A stretch of 64,000 nucleotides of DNA from Antedon mediterranea (Eukaryota > Animalia > Echinodermata), in NCBI RefSeq assembly GCF_964355755.1, contig NC_092673.1, positions 28,579,648-28,643,647 of the forward strand. Direction: 5' to 3'. The notes under the pieces are model-generated. The model did not search any database, was not told where the DNA came from, and was given only the letters and a program-made list of their open reading frames with translations. Both the position numbers and the translations under genes were made by a program. The first letter of the stretch is position 1; the number at the start of each line of letters is the position of its first letter. This document shows positions 3,001 to 46,100 of the stretch, one piece after another.

Positions 3001-6000
3001 ACTGCCCGAATCTCATTCGTATAGACTTTTCACACGTACCATGTCTGTCAAATGCTGCTCTACTAGAACCTATATTATGGCTACCACCTACTTGCAGTAG
3101 ATTTGTCAATTTGCGTCCATTACATATGGTAATTACGTCAAGTTTACTTTATTTTATAATATTAATGATGTATCACATAGCCTATGAACAATTTTTGGCC
3201 CTCAAGAAAAATATAATTCTCTCTGGGGGGATCTCAAATGTTATAATACACCCCTAAGCAGTCAATATCTGTATAATATTACATAGCCTATGTAAATACG
3301 CTAACGTGATTGGTTGAAACTGCATCACATGACTACCGCTGCGAGGATCGTAAATCGTATATATCCTCGAGAACGATGATATTGACTGTGTAATTTTCGC
3401 GTAATTATCGTGTCCCCTGTCATTAAACATATAGATTCTCGAGTACGATGATATTGACTGTGTAATTTTCGTGTGCCAACACTCGCGTTGTCGATAAATA
3501 AACAAAAGTCATCAACTCGATCTTGAACTTGGGTGGAATTGTCACTCCATCGCAAGACAACGCTTCAACCGCTGCGCCACGAAAGTTGCTTGAAGAAATT
3601 AATCATCTAAACTATTTAAACTATGCATACATAGCGCCCTCATTTGTTATAAGTTCACCCTAAATGTGATGAAACACCGTTTGTGATTGGTCAATACTCA
3701 CGGTAGTAACCTAGTAACTAGTACGCGCTGAACATCCGGTGATTCGGCTCCTCGAAGATCGAGAAGAAGACGAATTGTTTATTCGGCCTACCTGATTATA
3801 ATATTATTATTTTTAATAGGCTTATTGATGGAAATTCTTCTGTTAATTTAAACGACCTAGGCCTAAGTGAATATTTTATTGCCAAGGAATCATTAATTAG
3901 TAATTATCTGTATATTATTCTTCGCAAGGTAAGGTGTCTAGGCAGGCTTGTTTAAATACAATACAAATACTATAGGAGGCCTAGCCTAGCTTCACCCAAC
4001 CCAGCAGACTTGTTCTTGGCTATATAATATAACAGATATTGCCTTTTATATCGGTTAAATATAAGATTTGACATCCCCGAGGGAATGATATTAAGTTCGA
4101 GGGAATATATATTTCCCGAAGCGCCAGCTGAGGGAAATATATATTCCCCGAGAGCTTAATATCATTCCCGAGGGGATGTCAAATCTTATATTTAACCTCT
4201 AAGCAGTCAATATCTGTATAATATCTAATACAGTTGAACCATTCCATTGGGAACCCTATTTTAGGTGACATTTCTTTTCAGAAGTCACTTTCCTGTGAAT
4301 TATCAAAGTTTTTAACATTACGGCCCAACCCGTATTCAGTAGGGATTCTGCTGTATTAGCGATGCTATTTGTTTAAAATTTGAAAAAAATTAATATAAAA
4401 AATGCTCATAATATTGTATAGAAAATATATCATAATAATTTTTGCCCATTTTAGAAGAGCAAGTCTGCCTTGGAGTCATGGTTGTTTGCGATTGATCACC
4501 ATAGTTACCAACTTATGTACGCTATTGAATCGAAGTCATCAGAACCGTCGATAGAGGGAAGTGTTTATATGGCTAATTGGATGGACATCGCTGTGTGGCT
4601 AAATAAGTAAGAGACATTTTCATTAAAGATGTATTGTTCCCGTAAACAAATATTATTTTTTTGTTGAATATGACATTTTAATGTCACATAATATTTATTC
4701 AATTTGACCAAAAGTTTGACCATTTACTTGAAAAAAATTGTAATTTAAACTAAAGCCAATGAGTTGTTGGTTAATTTTAACCATTTATTTTGACATTTTA
4801 TAACTGAAAACATTATTTTTCGGAAGTTTTTTTCTCTACAGAAGTGCTTAACTTAACTTAAAACTACAAAATGGCCTATTCAAAGTCTGATTTAAATAAT
4901 TAATCTTCAATTTTCATGTTTTTAGAGGATAATACATCTTTAAGACTAACTTAATCTATTTCTAATTATTAATCTATCTCACTATTTGTGGATGTTGTGA
5001 CAACTATAATGAAACCAGCAATAATGAAGGCTCACGGCAATATAACTTTAATCAAGATGATACTTGTAATTGCACTCAACTGATTCAGTCAAGTGCAATA
5101 TCTGATAGAAGAATCATCACTTGAAATAGGTTTTTTTAATCAGGTTTTCTCTTAATATGACTATTTGAAATTAGTTTACCTTAGTATATTGCATTTAGAT
5201 GGTTTTGACTAATAATAATTTATTGGCAGCTTTGTTTATTTTTCTTTTGGATCCCCGCTTATTTACTCAAATTATTAATACTTTATTATGAATTTACAAG
5301 AGAAATAAATGTTGATCTATTATGATTTATAAATCCAAAGGCAAATTACTGAAAAATGACAATGCTGTGGGTATCATTGACTGGATCTCATTGGAGATAT
5401 AAACAAAATAAGCGCTGACAATGCTGTGGGTATCAGTGACTGGATCTCATTGGAGATATAAACAAAATAAGCGCTGACAATGCTGTGGGTATCAGTGACT
5501 GGATCTCATTGGAGATACAAATAAAATAAGCGCTGACAATGCTGTGGGTATCAGTGACTGGATCTCATTGGAGATACAAATAAAATAAGCGCTGACAATG
5601 CTGTGGGTATCAGTGACTGGATCGCATTGGAGATACAAATAAAATAAGTGCTGACAATGCTGTGGGTATCAGTGACTGGATCTCATTGGAGATACAAATA
5701 AAATAAGCGCTGACAATGCTGTGGGTATCAGTGACTGGATCTCATTGAAGATACAAATAAAATAAGCAAAAAGCTAATAATAAATAAATAAGCAGAGCTT
5801 TCGTTCAACACATTATGATTGATACCTATTATAGCTTATAGAGCAGAAAATGTAGACAAGAATTTGTTGAATCATTTTGCATTTATCTGTAATTTATCCT
5901 GACAAATTCATGATTATTTGAAATTTTAAAGTAATATATAAATCTGTTTGTTTTCTTAATGTTATATATATTTATGTAAATCGAATTTTATACTTTATGG

Positions 6001-8126: not shown

Positions 8127-8619
8127 CCATTTTTCGACAATGTCCCTGTACTATACTGCCCTGTCATGAAAGAACGACATTTATGTCAAAACTGGTTACT
8201 ATAGCACAATTGACATGCGCAGAAACCATTATTCGCCTCTGCGCATGTTTATTATGCAATAGTAACCCTTTATGTAAAAAAAATAAAAGGGTCTAAAATC
8301 GGCCATTTTTCGAAAATTTCCCTGTAGGCCTACTATAGTACAGGAATTTTTTTTTTAAATGGCCAATTTTCGACCTTTTTATTTTTCGATAAAACTGGTT
8401 ACTATAGCACAATTAACATGCGCAGAACCCATTAGTCGACTCTGCGCATGTTTATTATGCTATAGTAACCATTTATGTCAAAACTGGTTACTATAGCACA
8501 ATTGACATGCGCAGAACCTATAATTCGTCTCTGTGCATGTTTATTATGCAATAGTAACCATTTATGTCAACAAATAAAAGGGTCGAAAATCGGCCATTTT
8601 TCGAAAATTTCCCTGCGCA
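8127..8619. repeat. Left part of a nested-hairpin repeat array (~285-bp units separated by a CCCTGTACTATAGTACAGG-type palindrome)
   Basis: Repeated GGTTACTATAGCACAATT[A/G]ACATGCGCAGA...TCTGCGCATGTTTATTATGC[T/A]ATAGTAACC hairpins inside AAATGGCCAATTTTCGACC/GGTCGAAAATCGGCCATTT inverted arms. The array resumes at 23709. Confidence 0.85.
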
Positions 8620-9836
8620 AAGGGTACAACTCAATCTTCTCACTCGAAACGGTAAAGAACGCAAAAATAAATGGACAAGAAATGGACAGAGCCATGTGGG
8701 GTCATTAAAACTGAATTGGACTGGGTCATTAGATAATGAGGAAACTAGACAATTGGCCAATGGGACCCAAGAATCTAGGAGGTTGTTTTGAATACCGGCA
8801 TACTAAAAACTGTCAATTTTAGGGGTTTATCACATGATCGATGTATTAAATGAATAAAAATATTAAATAATAGAATAATAAGACTTAAATTTTTTGTTAA
8901 AAGTTGAGAAAGTCGACATTTTTTTCATCCAATTTTCGAAAAATCCTTGTACTACAGTACATGAATTTTGTTTTTTAAAACACGGTAAATTCGACTACAA
9001 TATGTATGTTGTATTAATCGTTAGTTCTTTTAATATGACGAGACGTTTTTTGTTGTGTTTTTAGGGTGTGAACAATTGTCAATCAAAATTGTATATATAT
9101 GTTAAATACTATGTAACTATTTAAAAAACCCACCCTGACTTCTGATTGGCCAACCATATTCCAAGTAGTTTGATAAGTCAGCCTTTTTAAAAAATGTAGA
9201 CAAAATTACCGTTAACTTTGTCTGGGGCTTTTTTTCTAGGCCACATGGTATCATAGGATATGTGTAACTGTAAGAGGAGTAACTGAAGGTTACTGGATAA
9301 TAACCTCTATAGTATGAGTTATTATCAAAATATATTATTAGAATTGGTGGAATGAATTATTTGATTCACATCAAAATGAATTGTAGTGGAATTGCTCTTG
9401 AAATAAATATAAAATAGTTGAGAATTTACACTACAAGAATATAGAATTCACCATTTAATGTACACTCAACTGCAAAAGTTTCCCCTCTGCTTTTTTTGTA
9501 AGGGCTTGGGACCTTCAAATACAAAGTGCAATGAATGATATAATGTAAATTATAATGTAATAATTAAAACTGAATGTAATTTATAAAAATTACAAAATAA
9601 TTTACAACATTAATCATTGCTCTTTGGATTTGGCAGCATTAAAAACTTTTTTTTTTTATTATTATTATTAACTTTACTGCACATTCAGAATACCATTAGA
9701 TATGGTGGCCCAATGGCCAAATTGCATAAAATACAAATATTTTGTAAAAAGTGAATATAAAATCACAGAACAAATAAAAATTGAAGATATACGAAACAGT
9801 ATAAAAACTATCCATGGCTACAACAATCATTTGGAA

Positions 9837-12800
9837 TCATTCTTTTTGCTGCTTTTTTTTCCTCTCTTGACGAAGGCGACGGATGGCAACCATAGCCGAT
9901 TTCCATTCTTTAAAAGTCACATCAGATGTTGCAGCACAATACCAATTTCCATAGTACTGAGTGTGGTTCTTATTTAATCTTGGTTGCTTACACTTTGAGC
10001 ACACAATCGCAGACGTTCTTGGTTTGTATATTTTGATCGGTTTCCCTTCCGATATGTCTTTAGCCACTCGTTTTCTGTACAAGAGGGTAGTTCTAGGAAT
10101 ACGAGTACTGCTAGCCTCAGGGACTGACGGTGGTGGTTTTGCTATCTCGCCAGGAACTGGGATCGACGGTCTGTTTCCTAGAGTCGCTAGGCCGGAAGTG
10201 TTTTTTGGTAGGACAAATGTGAAAGATGGAGCGCTTGTATGAACGTTTAGCACCGCTGGCTTGGTTAAAGGTTCAAGTAGGGTTTTATCAGAGACAAGTT
10301 TGGGTATTGTTGCCGAGATGCCAGATTCCAACACTTGCCGCTCTTGCTTCTTTGACGTTCTGTTGTACCTGTTGAAAATAAATCAAACACAGTATTTAAA
10401 AACTTTAATGTATTTACTGTAGCGTAAAATAACAATCAATAACAAGTAAAAACTCACCACTGGATGAGTGTCGTACGATTTATCTCCATCAACTGAAGCT
10501 TAGCAAACAACATCAGGTGTCCATTCGATAGCACTTTCCGACGAATGTTCTTGTAGCCTTTGGTAATGAGCGGCCAGCGCTGGAAACGTTTACCTTCGAT
10601 AGATACGGTAGATGGATACGCTTCACATAGTTTTGTAATAATGCACTCCATATATCGATTGCAGTCCGGCCACTGAGCTGGCCCGGTGTTCTGACCTAAG
10701 AAGCATCTTTTAAAAAAAAAACAAAGAAACAAGTTAGATTTAAGACACATCATGCAACAAAGTAAAAAACGCTGGAAACTGCCTTACCGTCGAGTGCTTT
10801 CGACACCAGGTATTACGGAAGTAGTTTTACTTTTCTTGAACCTGCCTTTCGTCAGGTAATCTTGATGCCGTGCTTTGCGCTTAATGGTTTTGTCATAAGC
10901 ATCCAGGTTGTTCCACAACTTTGCGACATGTTCAGCATGACTTTGACTTATCACTCCACTGTCTTCCTTAAACTGCATAAGGTAGTCTGCCAGGGCTTCA
11001 ACTTTGGCGTAGCCTGGAATGTTGTCCGGTCCAGTGGAATCCTCAAGTTCCTAAATTGTAAAATATGAAAACAAAATATATAATCAGACTCGTGCATTGT
11101 ATTTCAAAACAGAAACAAAATTTGTGAGGTAGAAGCTAATGATACAAATTTAACTCACTGTGTCAAAAAGGGCTGCTTTTCCTTCACCATCATCATCATC
11201 ATTATCGTCACATGAAGGCAAGGGCTCCAGCTGGGGTGGTGAGGGTTCTTTAGCATTTCGAGGTTTAAAACAACGCTTAGGTGGTTTGTAGTCTGGTTGA
11301 GTCTTGTCATCATACCCTTCATCAACATCAAAAGTGTAAATTTCTTCATCAAAGTCTTCATCATAAATGGTATCTGTTTTGACAGGAAATTGAGTTTCGA
11401 GCACTTTGTTCGACTGGTTGTACAGGTACTCCACTCCGATGAGTTCTCCAGTGTACTTGTTTGGAATGATAAAACTTTTGTACACTTTTTTGCCAATCAC
11501 TTGCTCTGCCAGTATGTTGAGAGCATGCTGATGCAGTCCACTATATGTACTGGAGATGGTTCCTCCAGACTGGGTAGCGGCTAGTGCACGGTTTGCATTC
11601 CATCGAACAAGTCCATCCATCAGGTAAGCTTGGAAATGTAAGTCGCTAGCACGCTCACCTGAGAAAAAAATAAAACATCCATAATAATGAAATAATACAA
11701 AAATTTGTAGATCGGTTTGAAGATTTGGTAGATACCAAATAAAAAGTAATACTGTACCTGGAATAAACCTGTTAAGGTGAAGATGAAACGATTCCAAAGA
11801 AGTGGAGCCTCTTGCGCAACGATATACTGGCAAGGTAACTCCACCCTTAAGCATCTCACTGGTTTTTGTGTAGAGCGGGATGCCTTCTGGATCCTGGATG
11901 CAGGCGATGTGTCGCTCTTGTGAGCTCCAGATATCCCAGGTCTGTTCAGAGTCTAAGAGTGGGACGCCCATTGTGTCACGGCCTTCTTCACCATCGAGGG
12001 AAGTCAGCAGCTCTCGGATTAGGTTGGCAGTCTCGCGAGTCCCTCGTGTTGTCCTGCGACAATGTAAAGCATACTCCTTCTTGCTGATGTTTTTCAATAT
12101 GATGTCGTCTGTTGGGTTGGAATGCTTCTTGCTTGCAATGAGCTGTTCACGCTTGGCGAGCTTCAGACGTTCAACATCGTCAGCGCTCCACTCAAAAATG
12201 CAAGCGGAAAGACGTTTGAGAAATATCGGATACAACTGATGTGATTCTGTTGAACAAGCTGCAGCAATTCTCCTCATGAAGTGCCAGATGTCCAGACGAA
12301 TTTTCATGTCAGGCCAGGCGCTGAACATCTTCCTTATGCTTGAATGACCGCAGCAGTCACGGTCGACGTAGAGAATCTCGGGAGGAGGTACGCCTGCCAA
12401 AGCATATCGGTTAATGATGCCGTTTGTCATGTTGTTTAAGCCACATCCTTCTGCAGCAGTCAGGACTGTAATGAGCACCTGGCCGTACTCATTTCCGACG
12501 TTTGTTGCCCACGCTCCTGTTCCACATGCACGACCGGCTAGCTTCCTTACAATCTGCAAAAAAACCCAAACAAATTTATTCGGAAGAAAGCTTCCCCACA
12601 ATCTGCAAAAAAAAAAAAATTCAAATAATTAAAAGTAAATTGCAGAAATAGTATTGTTTATAAATTATTTACCCTTTTGGTCGAGTCAATCTTCAACACT
12701 CTTCCGAACGTCGATGTGATAGAAGCCTTGAGTTCGTCGATTCTTCCCATTACTTCGTTGCAGTAGATGGTAAGGAACCATTGGACAGAGGGAACAGGAA

Positions 12801-14439
12801 TCATTTTAGACACCTCATCAAATTTAGAAGCAGCAATGACATAATCATCACGAGAACCACAGAACTTCTTGCAATTTTCTAAGTAGAGAGCCACTCTCTC
12901 ATTCCACCGCCTTGTGTGTTGTTCTAAGACTTGTTGGCGAAGCTGTGATGGACTGTTACCGAGACCGCGGTACTTTAGAAGCTGCAGGACCCGGTTGTCG
13001 CAGGCCAAGTGATACGAAAGTACAACAGGAAACTGAAGGCGATGTGCTAAATCAAGTTGCTTTAAAATGTTTTCACTCCAGCCAATTTGTCTTTGTTTGC
13101 AATTAGAGCACCTCAGTTGCTCTGTTGCAAGAAAGTAGTGGCAGTCTAAATCCAGGACCGGACGAACGATTCCATGGAGGCCGCCTGATGTTAGTGGATA
13201 GCTCTTGCATTCTGGCCGAGGGCAGACCAGCTTGACCTGCCAAGTCTTGCGGGGCAACCAAAGAAGAAGACGATGACCGAAGTAACTGTTGGCCATGGGT
13301 ATGTTTTTGTTGAGCGGATCCGGTTGAGGTGGATAATACCAAAGTTGTTTGAGTTTAGTTGAATCCAACTCTGCAGTCCCCTTCTTCGATTTCTTGAATA
13401 AGGTTTTTGAAATCCACTGCTGATCGATCTCGGGCAAGTTCTTCTTCCATTTATCTGGTATGAGACAATCTGCAAGAAAAACCAAAACAAAATTGTATAA
13501 TTTATGAAACTACATTATGTAATTTTCATTTTCTAGTTTTAAAAATCAAACAAAATAATTAAAATTACACTGAAATAAACTACCTTCACTCTGTTTGATA
13601 GTTATTGTAGTGGATGGCATAGTACTAACAGGTTCATAAGATGTATTTGGTTGAGCTGTAAGACGGAAAATTAAAGAATATTTAGCAGTAAACTACTACT
13701 TCATTCGCTATCTACAGTATGCTATAAAACAATGTATTTAAACAACACGATTTTATGATTGAGTATAAATGAATGCATAAAAAAAAACGTAAACCCAGCA
13801 AGCCTACAACATACACAGGCACTAAAAATGCAAAACCTGAAATTTGTAATTTAGAAAATGCACAAAAAACACAAATATGGAATAAGTCTTACCTGGTGCA
13901 TATGAGGTTGATGGTTGCAAAGAAGCATCAAAGACATCAGTACCAGAAAGTGTTTCATCTGTGACATCCTCAACCTGTTGTAGCTTAATGCCAACAGGTA
14001 TGTACGATGTCTGTCTAGTTGGGCATTTCCTGCGGCGTTTTATTTCTTTCATTGCTATGGCTTCTTTGCCTTCTGGGAAAGACTCCAAGTACCTCTTAAA
14101 GTTGAATTTGTTAATACTAAGTGAACTTGTACTTGGAATTTCATTAGCCATTTTAATAACAAAACATACTGCATATTCCAGTACATTTTCGACCATCCAC
14201 TTGAATGTTTGTCCACTGTATTTACTATGCTGAAACTTGTAGCAGCCCAACACATCACATTCATCTTTGGTGTTTCCACCCAGCCTGCACACCTCCTTCA
14301 AGGCATCTTGGCGTACATCATCAGGAGTTAGACACTTGCCAGTTGGTCGTTTTCTCAAGCTGTTAAATACTACAGCAGCAGATGTATCTTCAAGAATTAA
14401 GGCACCCTCTTCACTGCGCCGAAAAGTTGGTCTGAACAT
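9837..14439 (-). CDS. Putative DDE transposase, 1251 aa, 8 coding exons: 14439-13893, 13655-13584, 13469-12673, 12553-11758, 11658-11159, 11050-10788, 10706-10458, 10368-9837
   Basis: GT-AG exons sum to 3756 nt (1251 aa + TGA) with consistent phases. Motifs KIDSTK (D1), LYVDRDCC (D2), RLDIWH (DxxH) and RGSTSLESFH (E) match the pattern of the C/DxxH group of DDE transposases (MULE/IS256/ISL3/hAT/P). Also a Cys-pair domain CPRPEC...CSNC (DUF6729-like from recollection, needs HMM check) and a C-terminal CxxC-H-C finger. Confidence 0.82.
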
Positions 14440-15970
14440 ACTGTACTGTCTATTGAACACCTGCAAAACTAAAAAAACTGATCAAAGGCAAAAATATATG
14501 TAAGTAAAGTATGTAAAAAAGAAAATTTTACCCGTATAATGCCACTGTGCACCGTGCAGTTGTAGTAAATGGCTGTAAATAAAAGAAAATCAAATCTAAA
14601 TAAAATAAAATATCTGTGGGTTAAAATTTCTCAAGTAATAATTAATAGTAGACCAAGACTTTAAATGTAAAATATTAATAAAATGAATTACATGTAGCAT
14701 TAAAACATATCTACTAAGAACAAACTATTTTATCTAAATTAAATTAAGAAAATATTACATATGAATAATTATGTTTTTTTTTCAATTAAAAAAACTATAT
14801 AAAGAATTACAACATAAATTAGAGTAAACTGAATAATCTTTGTTTATTAAACAGTGTATGTATCAACTCTTTGATCCCTGAGCACTTCCTTTAATGCAAT
14901 CAAATTATTTGAGAATCTTATCTAAATCCACAAATACAGTTGATTGCCTAATTAAACGAATGCTTTAGATCAAAGAGTTGAAGCCTACACTTAATTAAAC
15001 AATCATTATAATAAAAGTTAAATTGTTTATCTATCAATTAAAAGGGTTGACATGTGAACAAGGCTTTAGTCTGTTTCCCATGGATGCTATTCTGATACAG
15101 CACACATTTAGTTGTTTATAGTTTAAAATTATGTTTAGGCCTAAAATCTATTACAGGGTACATAGGCTAGTCTAACTAGTAGTAGGATTGTTAAAATATT
15201 AAATAAATTAAACTTTAAAGAATAGCTTAATTACTTTAAACTAAATTTATTTACTATGGGATGGTTCTACGATAAATACTAATCTAAGCCTAGGCCTAGT
15301 CTAAACTACTGTAGTAAGTTTTGAAGAAAAAAAATAACAGGGAGCCCTAAGTAGGTAGCATCTTACTAGGGCCTAGCACTTACAGGCCCATGGTTTGACT
15401 TACAATTCATGGCAACCAAAAAAGATCTAGGCCTACCTAGAGGTCTTTCTATCTAGCCTACTAGCTAGGCCTAGGCTATATAGGCCTAGTAAATACATTA
15501 ATTAAAGTAAGTGTCGAGTGACACTATCTAACCCTAACTAACCTATAAAGGCATGCGTTATTGTTAATACTTTATGAAATATATGTAGGCCTACTGGTAA
15601 TTAGGGGGATAAGTAATAATAGCAAATGCATTTTACCACACACAGAGCAGACTACCGCCAACAAGAATTAGCGTCGGCACCCATACAAACACATTTGCTA
15701 GGCCATGGCATAGTTTCTATTGACTATGGCTAGGCCTAGACCAAACAAGTTATCAACACTTTAAATGCCGATTTCAAGCATGAAATCAATTTCGCTCTTA
15801 CCTTTAATGCAAGTACACGTTCGAGTTGAATACAGCTACTACCAGAATTCGCCTTGAAATTAATAATAATAAGTCTAGAGGATTTGTAAAAAGATGTTGT
15901 CGCATGTAAGTCTCTGGACAAAATCTCATCATTGTTTGTGTTGTGAAAAACTTGTTGAAGTCACATATTA

Positions 15971-16106
15971 ATTACGTCACTTTTCAGTGTTCTGATTGGT
16001 CAAAATGACAAATTTGGAACAATTTTTCTAATGCCCTGATTACGTCACTTTTCAGTGCTCTGATTGTTCAACTTTTGGAACGCTTTCCGCTGCTCTGATT
16101 GGTCAA
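15971..16106 (-). promoter_or_regulatory. Putative element promoter: repeated CCAAT + TGACGTAA modules (copy 2 at 23515-23650)
   Basis: ATTACGTCACTTTTCAGTG[T/C]TCTGATTG[G/T]TCAA at 15971-16003 and 16039-16071, plus a partial third copy at 16092-16106. On the minus strand these read CCAAT-like box then ATF/CRE-like site, upstream of the transposase gene. Confidence 0.5.
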
Positions 16107-16163
16107 TCAGTTGTTCAATTCATTGTCCAATTCTACAGCACATATTGGGTTATTTGTAGTACT

Positions 16164-19100
16164 AAGGGTACAACTCAATCTTCTCACTCGAAACGGTAAA
16201 GAACGCAAAAATAAATGGACAAGAAATGGACAGAGCCATGTGGGGTCATTAAAACTGAATTGGACTGGGTCATTAGATAATGAGGAAACTAGACAATTGG
16301 CCAATGGGACCCAAGAATCTAGGAGGTTGTTTTGAATACCGGCATACTAAAAACTGTCAATTTTAGGGGTTTATCACATGATCGATGTATTAAATGAATA
16401 AAAATATTAAATAATAGAATAATAAGACTTAAATTTTTTGTTAAAAGTTGAGAAAGTCGACATTTTTTTCATCCAATTTTCGAAAAATCCTTGTACTACA
16501 GTACATGAATTTTGTTTTTTAAAACACGGTAAATTCGACTACAATATGTATGTTGTATTAATCGTTAGTTCTTTTAATATGACGAGACGTTTTTTGTTGT
16601 GTTTTTAGGGTGTGAACAATTGTCAATCAAAATTGTATATATATGTTAAATACTATGTAACTATTTAAAAAACCCACCCTGACTTCTGATTGGCCAACCA
16701 TATTCCAAGTAGTTTGATAAGTCAGCCTTTTTAAAAAATGTAGACAAAATTACCGTTAACTTTGTCTGGGGCTTTTTTTCTAGGCCACATGGTATCATAG
16801 GATATGTGTAACTGTAAGAGGAGTAACTGAAGGTTACTGGATAATAACCTCTATAGTATGAGTTATTATCAAAATATATTATTAGAATTGGTGGAATGAA
16901 TTATTTGATTCACATCAAAATGAATTGTAGTGGAATTGCTCTTGAAATAAATATAAAATAGTTGAGAATTTACACTACAAGAATATAGAATTCACCATTT
17001 AATGTACACTCAACTGCAAAAGTTTCCCCTCTGCTTTTTTTGTAAGGGCTTGGGACCTTCAAATACAAAGTGCAATGAATGATATAATGTAAATTATAAT
17101 GTAATAATTAAAACTGAATGTAATTTATAAAAATTACAAAATAATTTACAACATTAATCATTGCTCTTTGGATTTGGCAGCATTAAAAACTTTTTTTTTT
17201 TATTATTATTATTAACTTTACTGCACATTCAGAATACCATTAGATATGGTGGCCCAATGGCCAAATTGCATAAAATACAAATATTTTGTAAAAAGTGAAT
17301 ATAAAATCACAGAACAAATAAAAATTGAAGATATACGAAACAGTATAAAAACTATCCATGGCTACAACAATCATTTGGAATCATTCTTTTTGCTGCTTTT
17401 TTTTCCTCTCTTGACGAAGGCGACGGATGGCAACCATAGCCGATTTCCATTCTTTAAAAGTCACATCAGATGTTGCAGCACAATACCAATTTCCATAGTA
17501 CTGAGTGTGGTTCTTATTTAATCTTGGTTGCTTACACTTTGAGCACACAATCGCAGACGTTCTTGGTTTGTATATTTTGATCGGTTTCCCTTCCGATATG
17601 TCTTTAGCCACTCGTTTTCTGTACAAGAGGGTAGTTCTAGGAATACGAGTACTGCTAGCCTCAGGGACTGACGGTGGTGGTTTTGCTATCTCGCCAGGAA
17701 CTGGGATCGACGGTCTGTTTCCTAGAGTCGCTAGGCCGGAAGTGTTTTTTGGTAGGACAAATGTGAAAGATGGAGCGCTTGTATGAACGTTTAGCACCGC
17801 TGGCTTGGTTAAAGGTTCAAGTAGGGTTTTATCAGAGACAAGTTTGGGTATTGTTGCCGAGATGCCAGATTCCAACACTTGCCGCTCTTGCTTCTTTGAC
17901 GTTCTGTTGTACCTGTTGAAAATAAATCAAACACAGTATTTAAAAACTTTAATGTATTTACTGTAGCGTAAAATAACAATCAATAACAAGTAAAAACTCA
18001 CCACTGGATGAGTGTCGTACGATTTATCTCCATCAACTGAAGCTTAGCAAACAACATCAGGTGTCCATTCGATAGCACTTTCCGACGAATGTTCTTGTAG
18101 CCTTTGGTAATGAGCGGCCAGCGCTGGAAACGTTTACCTTCGATAGATACGGTAGATGGATACGCTTCACATAGTTTTGTAATAATGCACTCCATATATC
18201 GATTGCAGTCCGGCCACTGAGCTGGCCCGGTGTTCTGACCTAAGAAGCATCTTTTAAAAAAAAAACAAAGAAACAAGTTAGATTTAAGACACATCATGCA
18301 ACAAAGTAAAAAACGCTGGAAACTGCCTTACCGTCGAGTGCTTTCGACACCAGGTATTACGGAAGTAGTTTTACTTTTCTTGAACCTGCCTTTCGTCAGG
18401 TAATCTTGATGCCGTGCTTTGCGCTTAATGGTTTTGTCATAAGCATCCAGGTTGTTCCACAACTTTGCGACATGTTCAGCATGACTTTGACTTATCACTC
18501 CACTGTCTTCCTTAAACTGCATAAGGTAGTCTGCCAGGGCTTCAACTTTGGCGTAGCCTGGAATGTTGTCCGGTCCAGTGGAATCCTCAAGTTCCTAAAT
18601 TGTAAAATATGAAAACAAAATATATAATCAGACTCGTGCATTGTATTTCAAAACAGAAACAAAATTTGTGAGGTAGAAGCTAATGATACAAATTTAACTC
18701 ACTGTGTCAAAAAGGGCTGCTTTTCCTTCACCATCATCATCATCATTATCGTCACATGAAGGCAAGGGCTCCAGCTGGGGTGGTGAGGGTTCTTTAGCAT
18801 TTCGAGGTTTAAAACAACGCTTAGGTGGTTTGTAGTCTGGTTGAGTCTTGTCATCATACCCTTCATCAACATCAAAAGTGTAAATTTCTTCATCAAAGTC
18901 TTCATCATAAATGGTATCTGTTTTGACAGGAAATTGAGTTTCGAGCACTTTGTTCGACTGGTTGTACAGGTACTCCACTCCGATGAGTTCTCCAGTGTAC
19001 TTGTTTGGAATGATAAAACTTTTGTACACTTTTTTGCCAATCACTTGCTCTGCCAGTATGTTGAGAGCATGCTGATGCAGTCCACTATATGTACTGGAGA

Positions 19101-22100
19101 TGGTTCCTCCAGACTGGGTAGCGGCTAGTGCACGGTTTGCATTCCATCGAACAAGTCCATCCATCAGGTAAGCTTGGAAATGTAAGTCGCTAGCACGCTC
19201 ACCTGAGAAAAAAATAAAACATCCATAATAATGAAATAATACAAAAATTTGTAGATCGGTTTGAAGATTTGGTAGATACCAAATAAAAAGTAATACTGTA
19301 CCTGGAATAAACCTGTTAAGGTGAAGATGAAACGATTCCAAAGAAGTGGAGCCTCTTGCGCAACGATATACTGGCAAGGTAACTCCACCCTTAAGCATCT
19401 CACTGGTTTTTGTGTAGAGCGGGATGCCTTCTGGATCCTGGATGCAGGCGATGTGTCGCTCTTGTGAGCTCCAGATATCCCAGGTCTGTTCAGAGTCTAA
19501 GAGTGGGACGCCCATTGTGTCACGGCCTTCTTCACCATCGAGGGAAGTCAGCAGCTCTCGGATTAGGTTGGCAGTCTCGCGAGTCCCTCGTGTTGTCCTG
19601 CGACAATGTAAAGCATACTCCTTCTTGCTGATGTTTTTCAATATGATGTCGTCTGTTGGGTTGGAATGCTTCTTGCTTGCAATGAGCTGTTCACGCTTGG
19701 CGAGCTTCAGACGTTCAACATCGTCAGCGCTCCACTCAAAAATGCAAGCGGAAAGACGTTTGAGAAATATCGGATACAACTGATGTGATTCTGTTGAACA
19801 AGCTGCAGCAATTCTCCTCATGAAGTGCCAGATGTCCAGACGAATTTTCATGTCAGGCCAGGCGCTGAACATCTTCCTTATGCTTGAATGACCGCAGCAG
19901 TCACGGTCGACGTAGAGAATCTCGGGAGGAGGTACGCCTGCCAAAGCATATCGGTTAATGATGCCGTTTGTCATGTTGTTTAAGCCACATCCTTCTGCAG
20001 CAGTCAGGACTGTAATGAGCACCTGGCCGTACTCATTTCCGACGTTTGTTGCCCACGCTCCTGTTCCACATGCACGACCGGCTAGCTTCCTTACAATCTG
20101 CAAAAAAACCCAAACAAATTTATTCGGAAGAAAGCTTCCCCACAATCTGCAAAAAAAAAAAAATTCAAATAATTAAAAGTAAATTGCAGAAATAGTATTG
20201 TTTATAAATTATTTACCCTTTTGGTCGAGTCAATCTTCAACACTCTTCCGAACGTCGATGTGATAGAAGCCTTGAGTTCGTCGATTCTTCCCATTACTTC
20301 GTTGCAGTAGATGGTAAGGAACCATTGGACAGAGGGAACAGGAATCATTTTAGACACCTCATCAAATTTAGAAGCAGCAATGACATAATCATCACGAGAA
20401 CCACAGAACTTCTTGCAATTTTCTAAGTAGAGAGCCACTCTCTCATTCCACCGCCTTGTGTGTTGTTCTAAGACTTGTTGGCGAAGCTGTGATGGACTGT
20501 TACCGAGACCGCGGTACTTTAGAAGCTGCAGGACCCGGTTGTCGCAGGCCAAGTGATACGAAAGTACAACAGGAAACTGAAGGCGATGTGCTAAATCAAG
20601 TTGCTTTAAAATGTTTTCACTCCAGCCAATTTGTCTTTGTTTGCAATTAGAGCACCTCAGTTGCTCTGTTGCAAGAAAGTAGTGGCAGTCTAAATCCAGG
20701 ACCGGACGAACGATTCCATGGAGGCCGCCTGATGTTAGTGGATAGCTCTTGCATTCTGGCCGAGGGCAGACCAGCTTGACCTGCCAAGTCTTGCGGGGCA
20801 ACCAAAGAAGAAGACGATGACCGAAGTAACTGTTGGCCATGGGTATGTTTTTGTTGAGCGGATCCGGTTGAGGTGGATAATACCAAAGTTGTTTGAGTTT
20901 AGTTGAATCCAACTCTGCAGTCCCCTTCTTCGATTTCTTGAATAAGGTTTTTGAAATCCACTGCTGATCGATCTCGGGCAAGTTCTTCTTCCATTTATCT
21001 GGTATGAGACAATCTGCAAGAAAAACCAAAACAAAATTGTATAATTTATGAAACTACATTATGTAATTTTCATTTTCTAGTTTTAAAAATCAAACAAAAT
21101 AATTAAAATTACACTGAAATAAACTACCTTCACTCTGTTTGATAGTTATTGTAGTGGATGGCATAGTACTAACAGGTTCATAAGATGTATTTGGTTGAGC
21201 TGTAAGACGGAAAATTAAAGAATATTTAGCAGTAAACTACTACTTCATTCGCTATCTACAGTATGCTATAAAACAATGTATTTAAACAACACGATTTTAT
21301 GATTGAGTATAAATGAATGCATAAAAAAAAACGTAAACCCAGCAAGCCTACAACATACACAGGCACTAAAAATGCAAAACCTGAAATTTGTAATTTAGAA
21401 AATGCACAAAAAACACAAATATGGAATAAGTCTTACCTGGTGCATATGAGGTTGATGGTTGCAAAGAAGCATCAAAGACATCAGTACCAGAAAGTGTTTC
21501 ATCTGTGACATCCTCAACCTGTTGTAGCTTAATGCCAACAGGTATGTACGATGTCTGTCTAGTTGGGCATTTCCTGCGGCGTTTTATTTCTTTCATTGCT
21601 ATGGCTTCTTTGCCTTCTGGGAAAGACTCCAAGTACCTCTTAAAGTTGAATTTGTTAATACTAAGTGAACTTGTACTTGGAATTTCATTAGCCATTTTAA
21701 TAACAAAACATACTGCATATTCCAGTACATTTTCGACCATCCACTTGAATGTTTGTCCACTGTATTTACTATGCTGAAACTTGTAGCAGCCCAACACATC
21801 ACATTCATCTTTGGTGTTTCCACCCAGCCTGCACACCTCCTTCAAGGCATCTTGGCGTACATCATCAGGAGTTAGACACTTGCCAGTTGGTCGTTTTCTC
21901 AAGCTGTTAAATACTACAGCAGCAGATGTATCTTCAAGAATTAAGGCACCCTCTTCACTGCGCCGAAAAGTTGGTCTGAACATACTGTACTGTCTATTGA
22001 ACACCTGCAAAACTAAAAAAACTGATCAAAGGCAAAAATATATGTAAGTAAAGTATGTAAAAAAGAAAATTTTACCCGTATAATGCCACTGTGCACCGTG

Positions 22101-23708
22101 CAGTTGTAGTAAATGGCTGTAAATAAAAGAAAATCAAATCTAAATAAAATAAAATATCTGTGGGTTAAAATTTCTCAAGTAATAATTAATAGTAGACCAA
22201 GACTTTAAATGTAAAATATTAATAAAATGAATTACATGTAGCATTAAAACATATCTACTAAGAACAAACTATTTTATCTAAATTAAATTAAGAAAATATT
22301 ACATATGAATAATTATGTTTTTTTTTCAATTAAAAAAACTATATAAAGAATTACAACATAAATTAGAGTAAACTGAATAATCTTTGTTTATTAAACAGTG
22401 TATGTATCAACTCTTTGATCCCTGAGCACTTCCTTTAATGCAATCAAATTATTTGAGAATCTTATCTAAATCCACAAATACAGTTGATTGCCTAATTAAA
22501 CGAATGCTTTAGATCAAAGAGTTGAAGCCTACACTTAATTAAACAATCATTATAATAAAAGTTAAATTGTTTATCTATCAATTAAAAGGGTTGACATGTG
22601 AACAAGGCTTTAGTCTGTTTCCCATGGATGCTATTCTGATACAGCACACATTTAGTTGTTTATAGTTTAAAATTATGTTTAGGCCTAAAATCTATTACAG
22701 GGTACATAGGCTAGTCTAACTAGTAGTAGGATTGTTAAAATATTAAATAAATTAAACTTTAAAGAATAGCTTAATTACTTTAAACTAAATTTATTTACTA
22801 TGGGATGGTTCTACGATAAATACTAATCTAAGCCTAGGCCTAGTCTAAACTACTGTAGTAAGTTTTGAAGAAAAAAAATAACAGGGAGCCCTAAGTAGGT
22901 AGCATCTTACTAGGGCCTAGCACTTACAGGCCCATGGTTTGACTTACAATTCATGGCAACCAAAAAAGATCTAGGCCTACCTAGAGGTCTTTCTATCTAG
23001 CCTACTAGCTAGGCCTAGGCTATATAGGCCTAGTAAATACATTAATTAAAGTAAGTGTCGAGTGACACTATCTAACCCTAACTAACCTATAAAGGCATGC
23101 GTTATTGTTAATACTTTATGAAATATATGTAGGCCTACTGGTAATTAGGGGGATAAGTAATAATAGCAAATGCATTTTACCACACACAGAGCAGACTACC
23201 GCCAACAAGAATTAGCGTCGGCACCCATACAAACACATTTGCTAGGCCATGGCATAGTTTCTATTGACTATGGCTAGGCCTAGACCAAACAAGTTATCAA
23301 CACTTTAAATGCCGATTTCAAGCATGAAATCAATTTCGCTCTTACCTTTAATGCAAGTACACGTTCGAGTTGAATACAGCTACTACCAGAATTCGCCTTG
23401 AAATTAATAATAATAAGTCTAGAGGATTTGTAAAAAGATGTTGTCGCATGTAAGTCTCTGGACAAAATCTCATCATTGTTTGTGTTGTGAAAAACTTGTT
23501 GAAGTCACATATTAATTACGTCACTTTTCAGTGTTCTGATTGGTCAAAATGACAAATTTGGAACAATTTTTCTAATGCCCTGATTACGTCACTTTTCAGT
23601 GCTCTGATTGTTCAACTTTTGGAACGCTTTCCGCTGCTCTGATTGGTCAATCAGTTGTTCAATTCATTGTCCAATTCTACAGCACATATTGGGTTATTTG
23701 TAGTACTA
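16164..23708 (-). mobile_element. 7544-bp putative autonomous DNA transposon, copy 2 of the dimer
   Basis: Matches copy 1 at offset 7544. Internal junction TTTGTAGTACTA|AGGGTACAAC at 16164/16165; right junction TTTGTAGTACTA|TAGTACAG at 23708/23709. Confidence 0.88.
17381..21983 (-). CDS. Putative DDE transposase, 1251 aa, copy 2 (exons of copy 1 shifted by +7544)
   Basis: ORF-track translations (214, 275, 483, 64, 99, 165 aa pieces) are identical to copy 1, with the same splice sites. Confidence 0.82.
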
Positions 23709-24420
23709 TAGTACAGCGATTTTTTTTTAAAAATGGCAAATTTTCGACCGTTTTATTTTTCGATAAATCTGGTTACTATAGCACAATTAACATGCACAGA
23801 CCCCATTAGTCGACTCTGCGCATGTTTATTATGCTATAGTAACCATTTATGTCAAAAACTGGTTACTATAGCATAATTGACATGCGCAGAACCCATTATT
23901 CGTCTCTGCGTATGTTTATTATGCAATAGTAATCATTTATGTCAAAAAATAAAAGGGTCGAAAATCGGCCATTTTTCGAAAATTTCCCTTTTTTTGGGGA
24001 AAAATGGCCAAAATATCCAATTTTTAAAACCAAATAATTATGCGATAATATTGCCATATATGCACATATACTGCGTTATCATCATCTTATAGAGCCATAG
24101 TAACTAGTTATGTAAAAAAATTAAAGGGTCGAAATTTGCAAATTTTTTGGAAAATTTCACTGTGCTATAGTACAGGGTTTTTTTTTTAAAGATTCCCAAA
24201 AAATCCACTTTTTAAAACCCAATAATTATGCGAAAATATTTCTTTATGCGCATATATTGTGTTATCATCATCTTATAGAGCCATAGTAACTAGTTATGTC
24301 ACACTATAGTACATGGATTTTTTTTAATGGCCAAATTTCAACCCTTTTATTTTTTTTACATAACTGGTTACTATATCGTAAATCGTCATGCGCAGAATCA
24401 CATAATGTGCTCTGCAAGTT
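23709..24420. repeat. Right part of the nested-hairpin repeat array
   Basis: 23709-23988 is a close copy of 8337-8614. More diverged units follow, separated by CTGTGCTATAGTACAGGG (~24160-24177) and ACTATAGTACATGG (~24303-24316). Confidence 0.85.
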
Positions 24421-25708: not shown

Positions 25709-26599
25709 TCATTGTCTACATCCACTGCACATACTTTCCATCCTTTTTTTGTTCAGAGTGCGCAACTCCAATATTCCAAGACCATACACTAAAGGATTAA
25801 TAAATGAATAAGCTAAAGCCAAGTTGTATTCCATTGCGTGTACATCAACAAAGTAATCATACGTACAATAGTCATCTTTCAATATCAAATCAACAATAGA
25901 CAAAATATCTGCGGGCAGCCAACACACTGTACAAGTACATATAATGATTGAGAACGTTTTCAGTAACTTTTTCGATAGTTGCAATTCTTGTGATCGATGC
26001 GCAGATATCTTCTTCTCGTGTTTAAAGATAGCTCGGTAGATAACAGCGTACGTGATAGTAACCACAATCAGTATGGTAAGATTCCAAATAGGAACGATCA
26101 CTGAGAGGATGTCAAACTCGTTAATGAAGTGCAGACAACCAGCCACGACTGCTGATACTCCCCAAATGACTGCAATCCCGCTAAGAATTCTTTTGGGAGA
26201 ATTTATGTTTTTATCCAGTGGGTACAAAACAATAACAAACAATCTCTCTACAGCAATACCTTCTAGTGTTTGAAATGAAGCCATGACCGATGAAGTTCTA
26301 ACTACTGACAGGATCAGAGTTCCCGTTTGACCGACAGACTGACCAACGCTTACCGAAACCAATGACGTCAGAGCGAATATCGCATCCGTAATTGCTAACG
26401 ATACCGTGAACAGATAATGACGTTTGTGAAGCGTCTGTTCCGTTGCAAACGTATACACCATGTAGATATTGAGTAACAGGGACAAAATACTTAAAACATA
26501 CGTAATAACCACGCAGTATAAATACCGTTCCTCTGTTTTAAACGTAAACAACAGAATGTCTTTGAGAGTGTAGTCACAGTTAACCGCCGAGTCATTCAT
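25709..26599 (-). CDS. Intronless rhodopsin-like (class A) GPCR, 296 aa, orphan
   Basis: Seven hydrophobic segments with class A motifs: N in TM1, SLAITD in TM2, AVERL (DRY position), W in TM4, CWLP in TM6, NPLVY in TM7. N-terminal NDS glycosylation sequon. Confidence 0.9.
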   Translation of the reverse strand: MNDSAVNCDYTLKDILLFTFKTEERYLYCVVITYVLSILSLLLNIYMVYTFATEQTLHKRHYLFTVSLAITDAIFALTSLVSVSVGQSVGQTGTLILSVVRTSSVMASFQTLEGIAVERLFVIVLYPLDKNINSPKRILSGIAVIWGVSAVVAGCLHFINEFDILSVIVPIWNLTILIVVTITYAVIYRAIFKHEKKISAHRSQELQLSKKLLKTFSIIICTCTVCWLPADILSIVDLILKDDYCTYDYFVDVHAMEYNLALAYSFINPLVYGLGILELRTLNKKRMESMCSGCRQ

Positions 26600-28365
26600 T
26601 TTAACGATCGCGATCTTTTCTGCTAAGGATTACTTTTGTAACTCTCACAGCAAATGGTAGATATCAGTTATAATCTCGGAGGCTATACAACCAACCCGAA
26701 TACAAATTAATTTAGTAGTACAGAAGGCCTAACTGTTGACTAAGTTAATAACACGGTCGTTGAAAGCAATCAAGCGGTAACGATGACAAATCCTGCACGA
26801 ATGAATGAACCCGACAAATTGCGTAGTACCACCCACATCACTGATCATAGGCTACAAAGCAACCAGTCAAAGGAAAGAAACTTAAACAATTAAAAGGTTA
26901 AATCACTGATACAATGGACTCTTCCATTGTCAAAAACAGACAAATAAAATCATGGCCAAACACTACAGTAGAACCTACGCATTGGTATCAATAATAGTAC
27001 TGCACCACATGTTTAGAAGGATGAAGCCATACCCGAATAGTACCACATGAGCATAGATTTATCTTTTTTTTTAATCAATACATAAACCAATTTCTATTTG
27101 GAAAGTTTTCTCCCTAATAAATGCTGCAACATCGAATGTCCAATGTAATGAACGTCAACATTTCAGTTGTATAAAACTCGATACATCACAAGATCAGCTG
27201 TAAAGCGCGCTACAACTCGGGCATAAAAAAAAAACGTCCAGGCATAACTTTACGTAACTCAATGTCCTGTAACAAACCAAGCTAAGTAGACATAAAAATA
27301 ATGTACAAACAAGTTACCAAATTTATTTATTTTCATCAGTCTCCATCAGTACATGATTTATTTAATCTAAATTCAGATACATTTTCTGTTATATAAATTG
27401 AACATTATTATTAATTATTACGAACTCAATTGACCAGTTTCAATGCATGTACAATCTTTATTTTCATCCTTACAGTATTCTCCCTTAAGCTCTGTCTACA
27501 CTTTCAAACTTTATGTGACAACAAATGTCATGTGCCCATATACAGACATAAATGAATGATTTAAGCGAAATTCAGCTGTATGATACATAGACCAAGCAGT
27601 CATGGGCTACAAACATCCAGGTAAGTTAAACAGGCTTTGCTCAATAATTATTTACAATCATATTTTGTTTATGACTAGGCTAAGTATCATCATTTCGCTT
27701 TGTGTTTTCCCGTTTACTTTATAACCGTACATATATTTTTCAGCCTACCATCCAATGATTATTCTCCTCTACATTTACTTTGGGAAAACTTGGCTTCATT
27801 TGCATCTTATTATTCTCTTGCACGCTCTGCCACTTTTCTAGCTAAATAAAATGCTGTGTGCTTCGAGGAACACTGTAACCTTTTAACCTGTTATTTTTCC
27901 TGCACTACAGCTTTGCTTTACTATTACATAATACATTTATTATTATACTTATACAGGAATAGGGTTTCTGAAATCTTGCCATTTCTTTCTGGTTTTTTTA
28001 CTTTATTGTTCTGATTTAGCTTTTTGTTTATTTTATCAAGGGTCCAGCCACTGATAAGTTCCACAGAATTGTAATTTTCAGTGCTTATTATTTATATAAT
28101 TATTATTAATTAATAATTAATTCATTTATTATAATTATTTATTAATTATAATTTATTATTAGTTATTTGATATAAATATTTATTTTGTATCTCCATTGAG
28201 ATTCAGCCACTGATACCCACAGCATTGTCATTTTTTCAGTGCTTATTTTATTTTGTATTTCCATTGAGATCCAGTCACTGAGTGCCATTCCGTGTATGAG
28301 TATAATAAAACACATACATAACTCAAAATAATGAACTACTAACCATTTTCATATTGGAGAATCCA

Positions 28366-43100: not shown

Positions 43101-46100
43101 CCTAAAAAGATAGTAATTATAATTTTAACAAAACAAACATTATAAGACGGGGTTCATAAATATATAAGCATATAAGCAAAACATCTGATATAATGGCACA
43201 ATAATAATTTATCTATGTTTAATTTTGTAATATTGTTTCAATTCAGTTTTAAATTTAGATGTGTTGGAAATTTGTTTAATATAGTCAGGAAGGTTATTCC
43301 ATTCTCTGATTGCATTAAAATAGAACGTATTACATTCTATGCCTTGGACTTTAGGTACAACAAAATTGAGTTTACTACCACGAGTGAAGTGACCATGTAA
43401 GTTATTAACTCTACGAAAGTTTTCGTTTAGGTATGAAGCACTTCTGCCCATAAATATTTTATGAACTTGGCTAATTTGCAAGAACTTTACTCGATATTTT
43501 ACATTTAACAATGTCATGATCTACAGTGTCAAATGCCTTCTTTAAATCGACCAACACCATACCCGAGAAATTTCCCTTAGAAGTTTGGGTTTTAAGGGAA
43601 TCAACTAAGTCTATCAAACATGTGTCAGTAGAGAAGGCAGCTCGAAATCCAGATTGATATTTATACAATACGTTGTTTTCAGTAAGGTATTTTTCGATTT
43701 GAATAAAAACAGCCTTCTCTAAAATTTTAGACATTGTACTGAGTATACTTATAGGGCGATAGTTTCCAATATCGGTTCTACTACCTTTTTTATAAAGAGG
43801 TATGACCTTGGCCTTTTTCATGTCTTCTGGGACTGTACTGGTACTAATTGATAAATTAATTATGTAGGTAATGGGAACTTTTAGAATTTCAGCCCCATCT
43901 TTTATGAAGCGGGGAGGTATCTTATCGACACCCGTGCTTTTTGTCGCATTAAGTTTGTTTAATTCACTATATATAAAGTCTTCGTCCACTGAGTTGAGCA
44001 TAAAGTTATTGCCACTAACGGTTCTATAGAAATCCTTAAGTTTGGACGACGTACAGTCATACACATTCTTAGGGGATGGAAGTTTACTGACCAAATTGGC
44101 TGCAATAGTAGTAAAATATTCGTTGAAGCAAGAAGCAATTTTGGCTGGGTCGAAACATTTAGTACCATTGGGCAGGTCAATAACCGTTTTAGCACTATCC
44201 TTAGATGTATTACTATAGCCTAGACCTTTAAACATTTTCCATAATTTTTTAGGGTTATTTTTATTTTCTTCAGCCTTGTTTAAAAAATGATTTGATTTAG
44301 CTTTATTTATATCACGCTGTATTTTATTTCTTAGTTTGCGAAATTGTATTAATAAGTCGGTATTATTCTTGTTTTTATTATACATATTTAATAATTTATC
44401 TCTGGTTTCAATGTCTTGTAATATTTCTCTAGTTAACCATGGTTCCGTTCTTTGTTTCATCCTAATGTTTTTAAGGGGGGCAATGGAATCAATAGCAGCC
44501 AAAAGTAATGCATTAAATTTATACAGAGCTTCATTTACATCTCCGATAGAGGTAACTACTGACCAATCGATATCTATTAGTATGTTTCTAAATTGATCAA
44601 CGGTATAGTTTTTTAGTGATCTGATATATACATTTTTATGTCCATTGAACTTAAGTTTAATAGTTTTCCGTGTACAAAATGTCATTAAGTGATCGCTTAG
44701 ACCTGTTGCGATTGTACCCGATTGGCTTATCTTATTCTCATTATTACATAATATATGATCGAGGCATGAAGCAACTGTAGGGCATATCCTAGTTGGTTCA
44801 GTTACTTTGTTACTTAAACTAAACATACTTAGAATTTGATTAGAGCTATTCAATAAAGATGACTTTGTTAAAGTACATATATTAAAATCGCCAACAACAA
44901 TTAATTCACTGTCCATTCCAATTTTAGATAACATATTTTCAAACAGAGTTAGAAAGTTCGTTTGCTTTGGTGGTCTGTAACATGTTCCAATTATAATGGG
45001 TTTGGTTTTAGGCAGGATCAGTTCAATCCAAAGTACTTCAGCTTCGTCGGATTCAATATCTGAACGCCGGTTAAACGCGATGTCATCCCTTATATACGTA
45101 CATACGCCACCGCCTTTGCGGTCGCGATCTCTTCGTAGAACTGAGTAACCTTCAATTTTAATTTCGTTGTCAGATACCGAATCATCAATCCATGTTTCGC
45201 TAATGGAGATAATGCCAGCTTTACTTTTATATGCAATATCGCGCAGTTCCAGTAGTTTGGGGATCATTGATCTTGTATTTAAGTGTAGAATGTGTATTCC
45301 TTTCTGTTTAAACCGCATGAAGTCTTCAGGAGCGACGTTATAATTAAATAATGGGGGTGGCGTTCTTAATCCTATGTCATCGTTATGATTTCCACAGGAA
45401 TCAAATGGGAGATGTTTCCAGCTGCATTCCACGCATACATAATCAAATTCAGTATTGTTGTTTACAATGTACTTGTATCTTTTGGGCGTCATGAAACCAT
45501 CAGTACACTTTATATGAGTCCACTTATTACACTCATCACACGATATGGCTCTGCTTCTGGTAGTGACGCGCCGTTGACATTTACCACAACAATTGTTTGA
45601 TACAGGTACATTCGCTGGTCCAGGATTGGATTCGATGTCACCACACCATAGTAAGCAGATAATTAAAGTTCTACATGCAAGCTGTCTGGGGTTCCGATGA
45701 AGATTATAATCATAATGCGAGAATTTTTTGGTTGATGTAAATAGGTACGTATAACACTCACCGACTACATTCTGGAAATCTTTCGATGTATGGTTATCCA
45801 GATAAATTGAAGAAGGGCATAACTTATGAATGACTTGTTCATGTTCAGGATGATGGTGTGATCTTTTCAACACCATAACATATAGCGACAGCGCCAGAAA
45901 AATACCATTCATACTTCCCGCCATATGATGTATCCTTATACACAAATAGAAAGGAAAAGTACACTCACCAATTGTGCTTGCCGAAAACAAAGGCCAGCAC
46001 GTCCTTGCTCTGCAGCGGAATGTATCGAGTTATGCGGTAACAAAATGACAATGTGTCCAGGTGGTCATGGAATGCAAGTGAATTCGCTTCGTCATTTGGT

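Follow-up and report, generated by a model that had tools for sequence, protein, structure and literature searches.

We analyzed a window of 64,000 nucleotides (64 kb) from the genome of the feather star Antedon mediterranea (RefSeq assembly GCF_964355755.1, contig NC_092673.1, positions 28,579,648 to 28,643,647 of the forward strand; positions below are counted from the first letter of this window). It contains a head-to-tail dimer of a DDE-type transposon that almost certainly belongs to the Dada superfamily. Both outer flanks of the dimer lie in a palindromic host repeat, and the 6-bp joints at its two sides differ. Together with end-to-end junctions in other samples, this arrangement leads us to consider it somewhat probable that the transposase attaches one transposon end at a point 6 bp beyond another end or a target site, in the manner of IS256 enzymes.

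The dimer of two intact, identical copies is real. The units at 8620-16163 and 16164-23707 show 0 differences over 7,544 bp, as the preliminary description of this DNA had supposed. The length of 7,544 bp given there for the transposon holds for the period, whereas the element itself measures 7,538 bp and is accompanied by a 6-bp joint, so that the locus reads TTCCCT-GCGCAA-(7,538 bp)-GTACTA-(7,538 bp)-GTACTA-TAGTACAG. The single A thought to be shared by all junctions, taken as a sign that no target site duplication (TSD) exists, was a misreading of these joints, which are GCGCAA on the left and GTACTA on the right. The element boundaries at 16158 and 16165 are supported by contigs of X6, a second species, because one contig ends at the former position and another starts at the latter. 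Comparison of both element ends revealed no terminal inverted repeats (TIRs) and weak symmetry only, in line with the preliminary description, and TTG(G/A)ACAA repeats lie further inside the element from the right-end motif. A 'TA-6-TA' symmetry at the right joint is absent from published U6 families and may be due to chance. Contig depth and variants are about 2-3 times higher at 9114-9490 (and at +7544), inside the element, which suggests that another repeat is embedded in its 3' region.

When the element is removed, the flanks join as one repeat of palindromic subunits with a period of ~290 bp, and the target is a CTGTACTATAGTACAG palindrome within it. Empty repeat sites, found at 24160 and at many loose ends of contigs from X1, X3 and X5, read CT-GT(A/G)CTA-TAGTACAG; thus, the right 6-mer is native to the target and the left one is foreign. 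Since the summed contig depth over the host repeat exceeds that of the element by a factor in the hundreds, the repeat is probably present in high copy number. It also flanks single ends elsewhere: in X5, GCGCAA and then this repeat come after one right end, and in X2, the repeat and then GTACTA come before one left end. An RNA gene as the target was rejected, because Rfam and ARAGORN revealed no U6, tRNA or small nuclear RNA (snRNA) gene at either flank; all Rfam matches there were below the gathering score, mostly to hairpin microRNA models. One repeat unit to the left of the insertion, we also observed a site that resembles the target but is 6 bases longer (CCCT-GTAGGC-CTACTA-TAGTACAG, 8320-8343), possibly an excision footprint or an unrelated AGGCCT insertion.

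Assignment to the Dada superfamily

The Dada superfamily was described by Kojima and Jurka (2013, PMC3706591) and further by Kojima (2022, PMC8869645). Dada elements have no TIRs and are bounded by 6-7-bp joints, with tandem copies reported for Dada-U1A and Dada-U1B (PMC3706591). In published Dada insertions, GCGCAA may take the place of the target 6-mer at one side or at both, 'by an unknown mechanism' ('TSD replacement'). We assigned the present element to this superfamily because transposase motifs, intron position, left-end register and U6-abutting relatives all agree; the preliminary view that it could not be placed in any named eukaryotic superfamily was therefore abandoned. It combines a DDE triad of the DxxH type, CCCC and CCHC zinc fingers, a lack of TIRs, a subterminal motif at a fixed distance and 6-bp joints. 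Published Dada-U6 and Dada-tA DNA encodes YRCARGSTSLESFHLHLNRF(I/V)PG around the catalytic E, followed by the same phase-1 intron, a homology at the level of motifs (the RCARGSTSLESFHLHLNRF(I/V)PG peptide plus the intron, compared by eye with the 2022 supplement). The spacing of 68 residues between the first two catalytic aspartates equals that of Dada-U6_DR (PMC3706591), and the Dada-U6 ends of zebrafish, Daphnia and Capitella share the register of the left end, CCCT GCGCAA AGG-N11-TCTTCT. Among metagenome loci (the best 80 of 182 related ones, most of which do not reach an end), the relatives L004, L048 and L067 adjoin U6 at GCGCAA. In a tree with no labelled Dada references (256 aligned rows, after 100 of 356 sequences had been dropped for <80% coverage), the element groups with sea-urchin proteins (support 0.99), and the U6-inserted L004, which is 63% identical, falls in the same clade of 50 (support 0.61). 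The end motifs are compatible with both the U6 and the tA lineages.

Several other assignments were considered. Dada-U6, as a family defined by its target, does not apply, since neither flank of this locus holds a U6, tRNA or snRNA gene, and a new superfamily is ruled out by the presence of Dada features. MuDR/MULE elements have long TIRs and 8-10-bp TSDs. Neither feature was found here, nor was any MULE Pfam domain, and membership of IS256 was rejected for the lack of ~30-bp TIRs and of an 8-bp TSD.

The minus strand of each unit encodes an 8-exon spliced model of exactly 1,251 residues without stops. Its product equals protein P0132, which is labelled Antedon mediterranea at NCBI under two accessions that may stand for the two copies or for two isoforms. 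All seven coding introns (237, 114, 119, 99, 108, 81 and 89 bp) are joined in contigs of run X5, which we guess to be RNA, and the intact spliced gene anticipated in the preliminary description is thus borne out. At E<=1, Pfam detected DUF6729 alone. The zinc-finger residues are C289/294/327/330 and C1198/C1201/H1210/C1219. As to the catalytic residues, D468 is conserved in 194 of the 256 alignment rows (47 are gapped there), D536 in 242, D560 and H563 in 254 and 248, and E726 in 236. The P0132 cluster has 16 members, and among the 15 listed, four other full-length proteins differ by 3-11 residues. None of 109 pattern matches in viral contigs was confirmed as a relative. Three further proteins of the same named species (P0003, P0135 and P0137; 72-75% identical) form a second Dada family. 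A variant left end in the contigs (16173G, 16191G, 16212G) may belong to that family or to a subfamily.

The transposase core (residues 431-798, modelled from a 106-row alignment) was predicted with a pLDDT of 90.5 to have the RNase H order plus a helical insertion, which agrees with the fold expected earlier for the spliced protein. Foldseek returned only three hits at E<=0.001, all of them ISCth4 (best E 2.4e-5). A fold search of 48,161 chains likewise placed ISCth4 first (Z 12.6, root-mean-square deviation 3.6, 240 aligned), with Hermes (8.2), P (8.1), piggyBac (Z 6.6) and integrases behind it, while no PDB sequence was matched by a profile search at E<=10. The RNase H DDE core is therefore predicted to be closest to ISCth4 of the IS256 family, and the kinship of the D468/D536/DIWH/E726 core with IS256 and MULE transposases, proposed in the preliminary description, fits this prediction.

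End-to-end junctions and proposed mechanism

The exact tail-GTACTA-head sequence was found in contigs of X2 (81 nt, 0 differences), X3 (64 nt, 0 differences) and X6 (54 nt, 2 differences). In each of these, at least one side of the spacer is covered by <31 letters; a length of 31 letters on both sides is reached only by a 402-nt contig of X5, with the spacer GCGGGG. A difference table yielded the other spacers GCGCTA (X2), GCGCTT (X3) and GCGGGG (X5). The ratio of junction to element depth, a rough figure, is 0.52, 0.53 and 0.64 in X1-X3. Junctions of the form end-6 bp-end were also observed in five or six of the 80 metagenome loci (L010, L024, L025, L053, L057 and probably L021), with spacers GCGCAA, GCGCAG and GTGCTA. 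The far side of the L024 junction only resembles an end. L053 forms a tandem that has a period of ~5.34 kb and two junctions differing by 3 bp. A scan for motif pairs gave 11 strand-hits at 14+6+14 spacing, compared with one in total over 12 other spacings, a partly circular result since the motif rule includes one variant from L010. A generic scan for symmetric 9-mers was discarded as mostly chance (90 hits, ~33 expected). The preliminary picture of a young, intact DDE element forming tandem arrays holds, and site-specific insertion or circles, as proposed there, are the likely cause of such arrays. In the distant relative L025, the junction spacer at 260-311, GTGCTA, is the 6-mer of the empty site at 24162. 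Near-identical end sequences are found on the 5' side of the gene in L048 (1-92) and L067 (182-274), but on its 3' side in L057 (4101-4152) and L053.

Bacterial elements offer a precedent for such structures. ISCth4 attaches one of its ends 6-8 bp beyond the other end, and among the resulting junctions those of 6 bp are integrated most efficiently (PMC7780238); end-targeting by IS30 gives dimers and 'sequence conversion products' (PMC9333248). If the Dada transposase works in this way, which we judge slightly favoured by the present data, linking the two ends of a single copy would produce a circle whose 6-bp spacer is a copy of flank sequence. End joining across sister chromatids, or joining of a circle next to its parent, would then give an exact dimer whose spacer is one of the flank 6-mers. 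If a junction were transferred into a target by a single end and the 6-bp mismatch were then resolved, the carried 6-mer would remain at one side or at both, and we propose that GCGCAA at this locus and the published 'TSD replacement' arise because such a transfer carries the 6-mer along. A single end-targeting reaction would thus account for the spacer equal to a flank, the identical copies, the frequent junctions and the carried GCGCAA. It is likely that the family shifted from U6 (CCCCT-GCGCAA) to the repeat (TCCCT-GTACTA). Taken as a whole, we put forward only tentatively that Dada may be a copy-out, end-targeting transposon whose 'TSD' is a 6-bp coupling spacer swapped between junction and target, much as by a site-specific recombinase built on a DDE enzyme, and that it may build its own arrays and have been retargeted in feather stars from U6 to a high-copy palindromic repeat.

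A number of observations weigh against this proposal. Unlike U6, the target here has no CAGAGAAGA look-alike of the element end and carries GGCCATTTT at that place; target and end look-alike have only CCCT in common, and the element's own right motif matches at 5 of 9 positions. Target specificity rests on few flanks, namely this locus, one right flank in X5 (offset by ~3 nt), one left flank in X2 and 6-mers without further flank in X6, and the flank of one diverged right end in X2/X3 is unrelated. No U6 flank occurs among the contig pieces listed, although U6 insertions may exist beyond them. The junction contig of X6 reaches only 0.09 of the end depth; contig depth is no measure of copy number, and X1-X3 represent one sample, possibly the source of the assembly. 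No free circle or figure-eight was found among the contigs, which cannot separate a circle from a tandem. Identity to ISCth4 is ~12%, and a shared fold fixes no mechanism: hAT and P elements share it and transpose by cut-and-paste. Finally, paste-in of the IS256 type normally drops the spacer and makes a true TSD (PMC7780238), so spacer carry-over would need the less common single-end route.

The eukaryotic relatives of Dada are cut-and-paste elements, which speaks for a different mechanism. Excision with 6-nt flank overhangs, comparable to that of piggyBac at TTAA, with mispairing repaired either way and a short-range transposition from the sister chromatid into the restored joint, would also cover the mixed 6-mers, the 6-bp spacer and the identical copies; piggyBac keeps 4 nt of flank as an overhang and is also excised where the flanks are not TTAA (PMC7351741). 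We regard this explanation as unlikely, given that piggyBac ranks low in the fold search and that flap removal should favour the target 6-mer, whereas published Dada-tA and Dada-tY insertions mostly carry the foreign 6-mer on both sides.

Explanations that leave the transposase out of the dimer appear weaker still. The zero differences over 7.5 kb, and the fact that no record spans the whole locus, would suit an assembly artefact in which one copy, or a longer array, was unrolled twice through a repeat loop, with the junction contributed by circles or other loci. The junction is abundant in read-derived contigs, however, and an artefact at this locus would not do away with those of X5, X6 and the metagenome loci, so that we consider it improbable. 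Both copies also share six letters unlike the majority contigs of X1/X3 (9019, 11560, 11705, 13977, 13990 and 14694), an observation that excludes a consensus copy only, because an unrolled single copy would show them too. An insertion of the usual kind, with the dimer and the altered 6-mer produced afterwards by gene conversion, replication slippage or recombination of the host, would match identical copies located in a tandem repeat rich in palindromes, where rearrangements arise readily. Nevertheless, a monomer offers no direct repeat for recombination (GCGCAA versus GTACTA), the changed 6-mer is exactly the U6-type one of the family, and exact end-6 bp-end junctions recur in distant relatives, all of which makes this origin very improbable.

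Features of the window

The element and its surroundings are listed in the table.

Coordinates of the transposon dimer, its joints, its gene and the host repeat (window positions unless stated otherwise)
Feature	Position	Strand	Description
Element assigned to Dada, copy 1	8621..16158	-	7,538 bp
Element assigned to Dada, copy 2	16165..23702	-	identical to copy 1
Left 6-bp joint	8615..8620	+	GCGCAA, U6-type 6-mer replacing the target's GT(A/G)CTA
Tail-to-head spacer	16159..16164	+	GTACTA, same as right joint
Right 6-bp joint	23703..23708	+	GTACTA, native to target
Left end, Dada-U6 type	8621..8643, also 16165-16187	+	AGG, 11 nt, TCTTCTCAC; subterminal motif 14 bp from joint
Right end	16136..16158	+	degenerate subterminal motif CAGCACATA, 14 bp from joint
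Host repeat, left part	8127..8614		palindrome-rich units, ~290-bp period; outer edge approximate
Host repeat, right part	23709..24420		continuous with left part; outer edge approximate
Empty target-like site	24160..24175	+	CTGTGCTATAGTACAG, in the same host repeat
Transposase coding sequence, copy 1	9837..14439	-	exons 14439-13893, 13655-13584, 13469-12673, 12553-11758, 11658-11159, 11050-10788, 10706-10458, 10368-9837
Transposase coding sequence, copy 2	17381..21983	-	same exons +7,544
Intron in 5' untranslated region	14573..15801	-	joined in X5 contig, 28 letters on short side
Protein domains	residues		DUF6729 214-447; CCCC 289-330; D468/D536/DIWH 560-563/E726; CCHC 1198-1219

Elsewhere in the window, an 852-codon frame on the minus strand (43474-46029) encodes a PHD, an endonuclease and the start of a reverse transcriptase and represents a fragment of a long interspersed nuclear element. 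The same strand carries a frame for a rhodopsin-family G-protein-coupled receptor (25712-26629) and the exons of a protein with leucine-rich repeats and coiled coils (38589-63534), which may be centriolin-like. On the plus strand there are a 543-codon open frame with no Pfam match (382-2010) and a low-scoring tRNA-like sequence with an ATC anticodon (62095-62167), probably a pseudogene or the head of a short interspersed nuclear element. Minisatellites were observed at 5357-5767 (59-bp period), 46634-47847 (17 bp) and 60413-61471 (17 bp).

Comparison with known systems

The Dada superfamily, its lack of TIRs, the replaced 6-mer and the tandem copies are already known. In the literature searched (Repbase, which may hold the family, and subscription journals were outside its scope), there is no prior report of Dada with a non-RNA repeat at both ends as an apparent regular site, of Dada in an echinoderm, of a link between DUF6729 and Dada, or of an IS256-like model for Dada. 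Dada elements are among the few sequence-specific eukaryotic DNA transposons and have been proposed as a gene-delivery tool, and the way in which they replace target bases is stated to be unknown (PMC3706591). Because the present copy is young, intact and spliced and its two flanking 6-mers can be told apart, this replacement mechanism becomes directly testable. Moreover, the locus suggests a capacity of Dada to switch from RNA genes to a different repeat, and DUF6729, a family still unnamed in Pfam, is tied to Dada transposases.

Similar to Dada-U6 and Dada-tA, the element has a multi-exon DDE gene with DxxH, an N-terminal CCCC and a C-terminal CCHC finger, no TIRs, a subterminal motif 14 bp from the 6-bp joint, a CT-GCGCAA left joint and one-sided replacement of the 6-mer. 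Its gene is antisense to the CT-GCGCAA direction, as in Dada-U6_DR, and its tandem copies recall those of Dada-U1A and Dada-U1B. It differs in that both flanks are a non-RNA palindromic repeat, whereas Dada-U6 is never non-U6 at both ends according to PMC3706591; one Dada-tV copy has been reported inside a hAT element (PMC8869645). Its echinoderm host is absent from the table of the former paper and from the text of the latter, and its right subterminal motif is degenerate. Compared with Dada-U6_DR (fingers C389/394/429/432 and C1359/1362/H1372/C1381; PMC3706591), the spacing between the second aspartate and the catalytic E is 190 instead of 176 residues, and two zinc-finger loops are 1-2 residues shorter.

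Among bacterial systems, ISCth4 provides the closest solved fold, with D/D/(C/D)xxH/E and a helical insertion, and forms junctions with 6-8-bp flank-derived spacers (PMC7780238). It differs in having 31-bp TIRs, true 8-bp TSDs and no site specificity, whereas Dada has introns, zinc fingers and DUF6729, at ~12% identity. IS30 and IS911 form tandem (IS)2 dimers with a short spacer, insert beside an end and convert joint sequences (PMC9333248); they are bacterial, belong to another transposase family and have a 2-bp joint in IS30, so the likeness is one of analogy only. KolobokP, which has long terminal direct repeats, a TTAA TSD and a homing nuclease, none of them seen here, resembles the present element as a eukaryotic C/DxxH DDE transposon with multimers, for which a copy-out circle has been suggested (PMC9587614).

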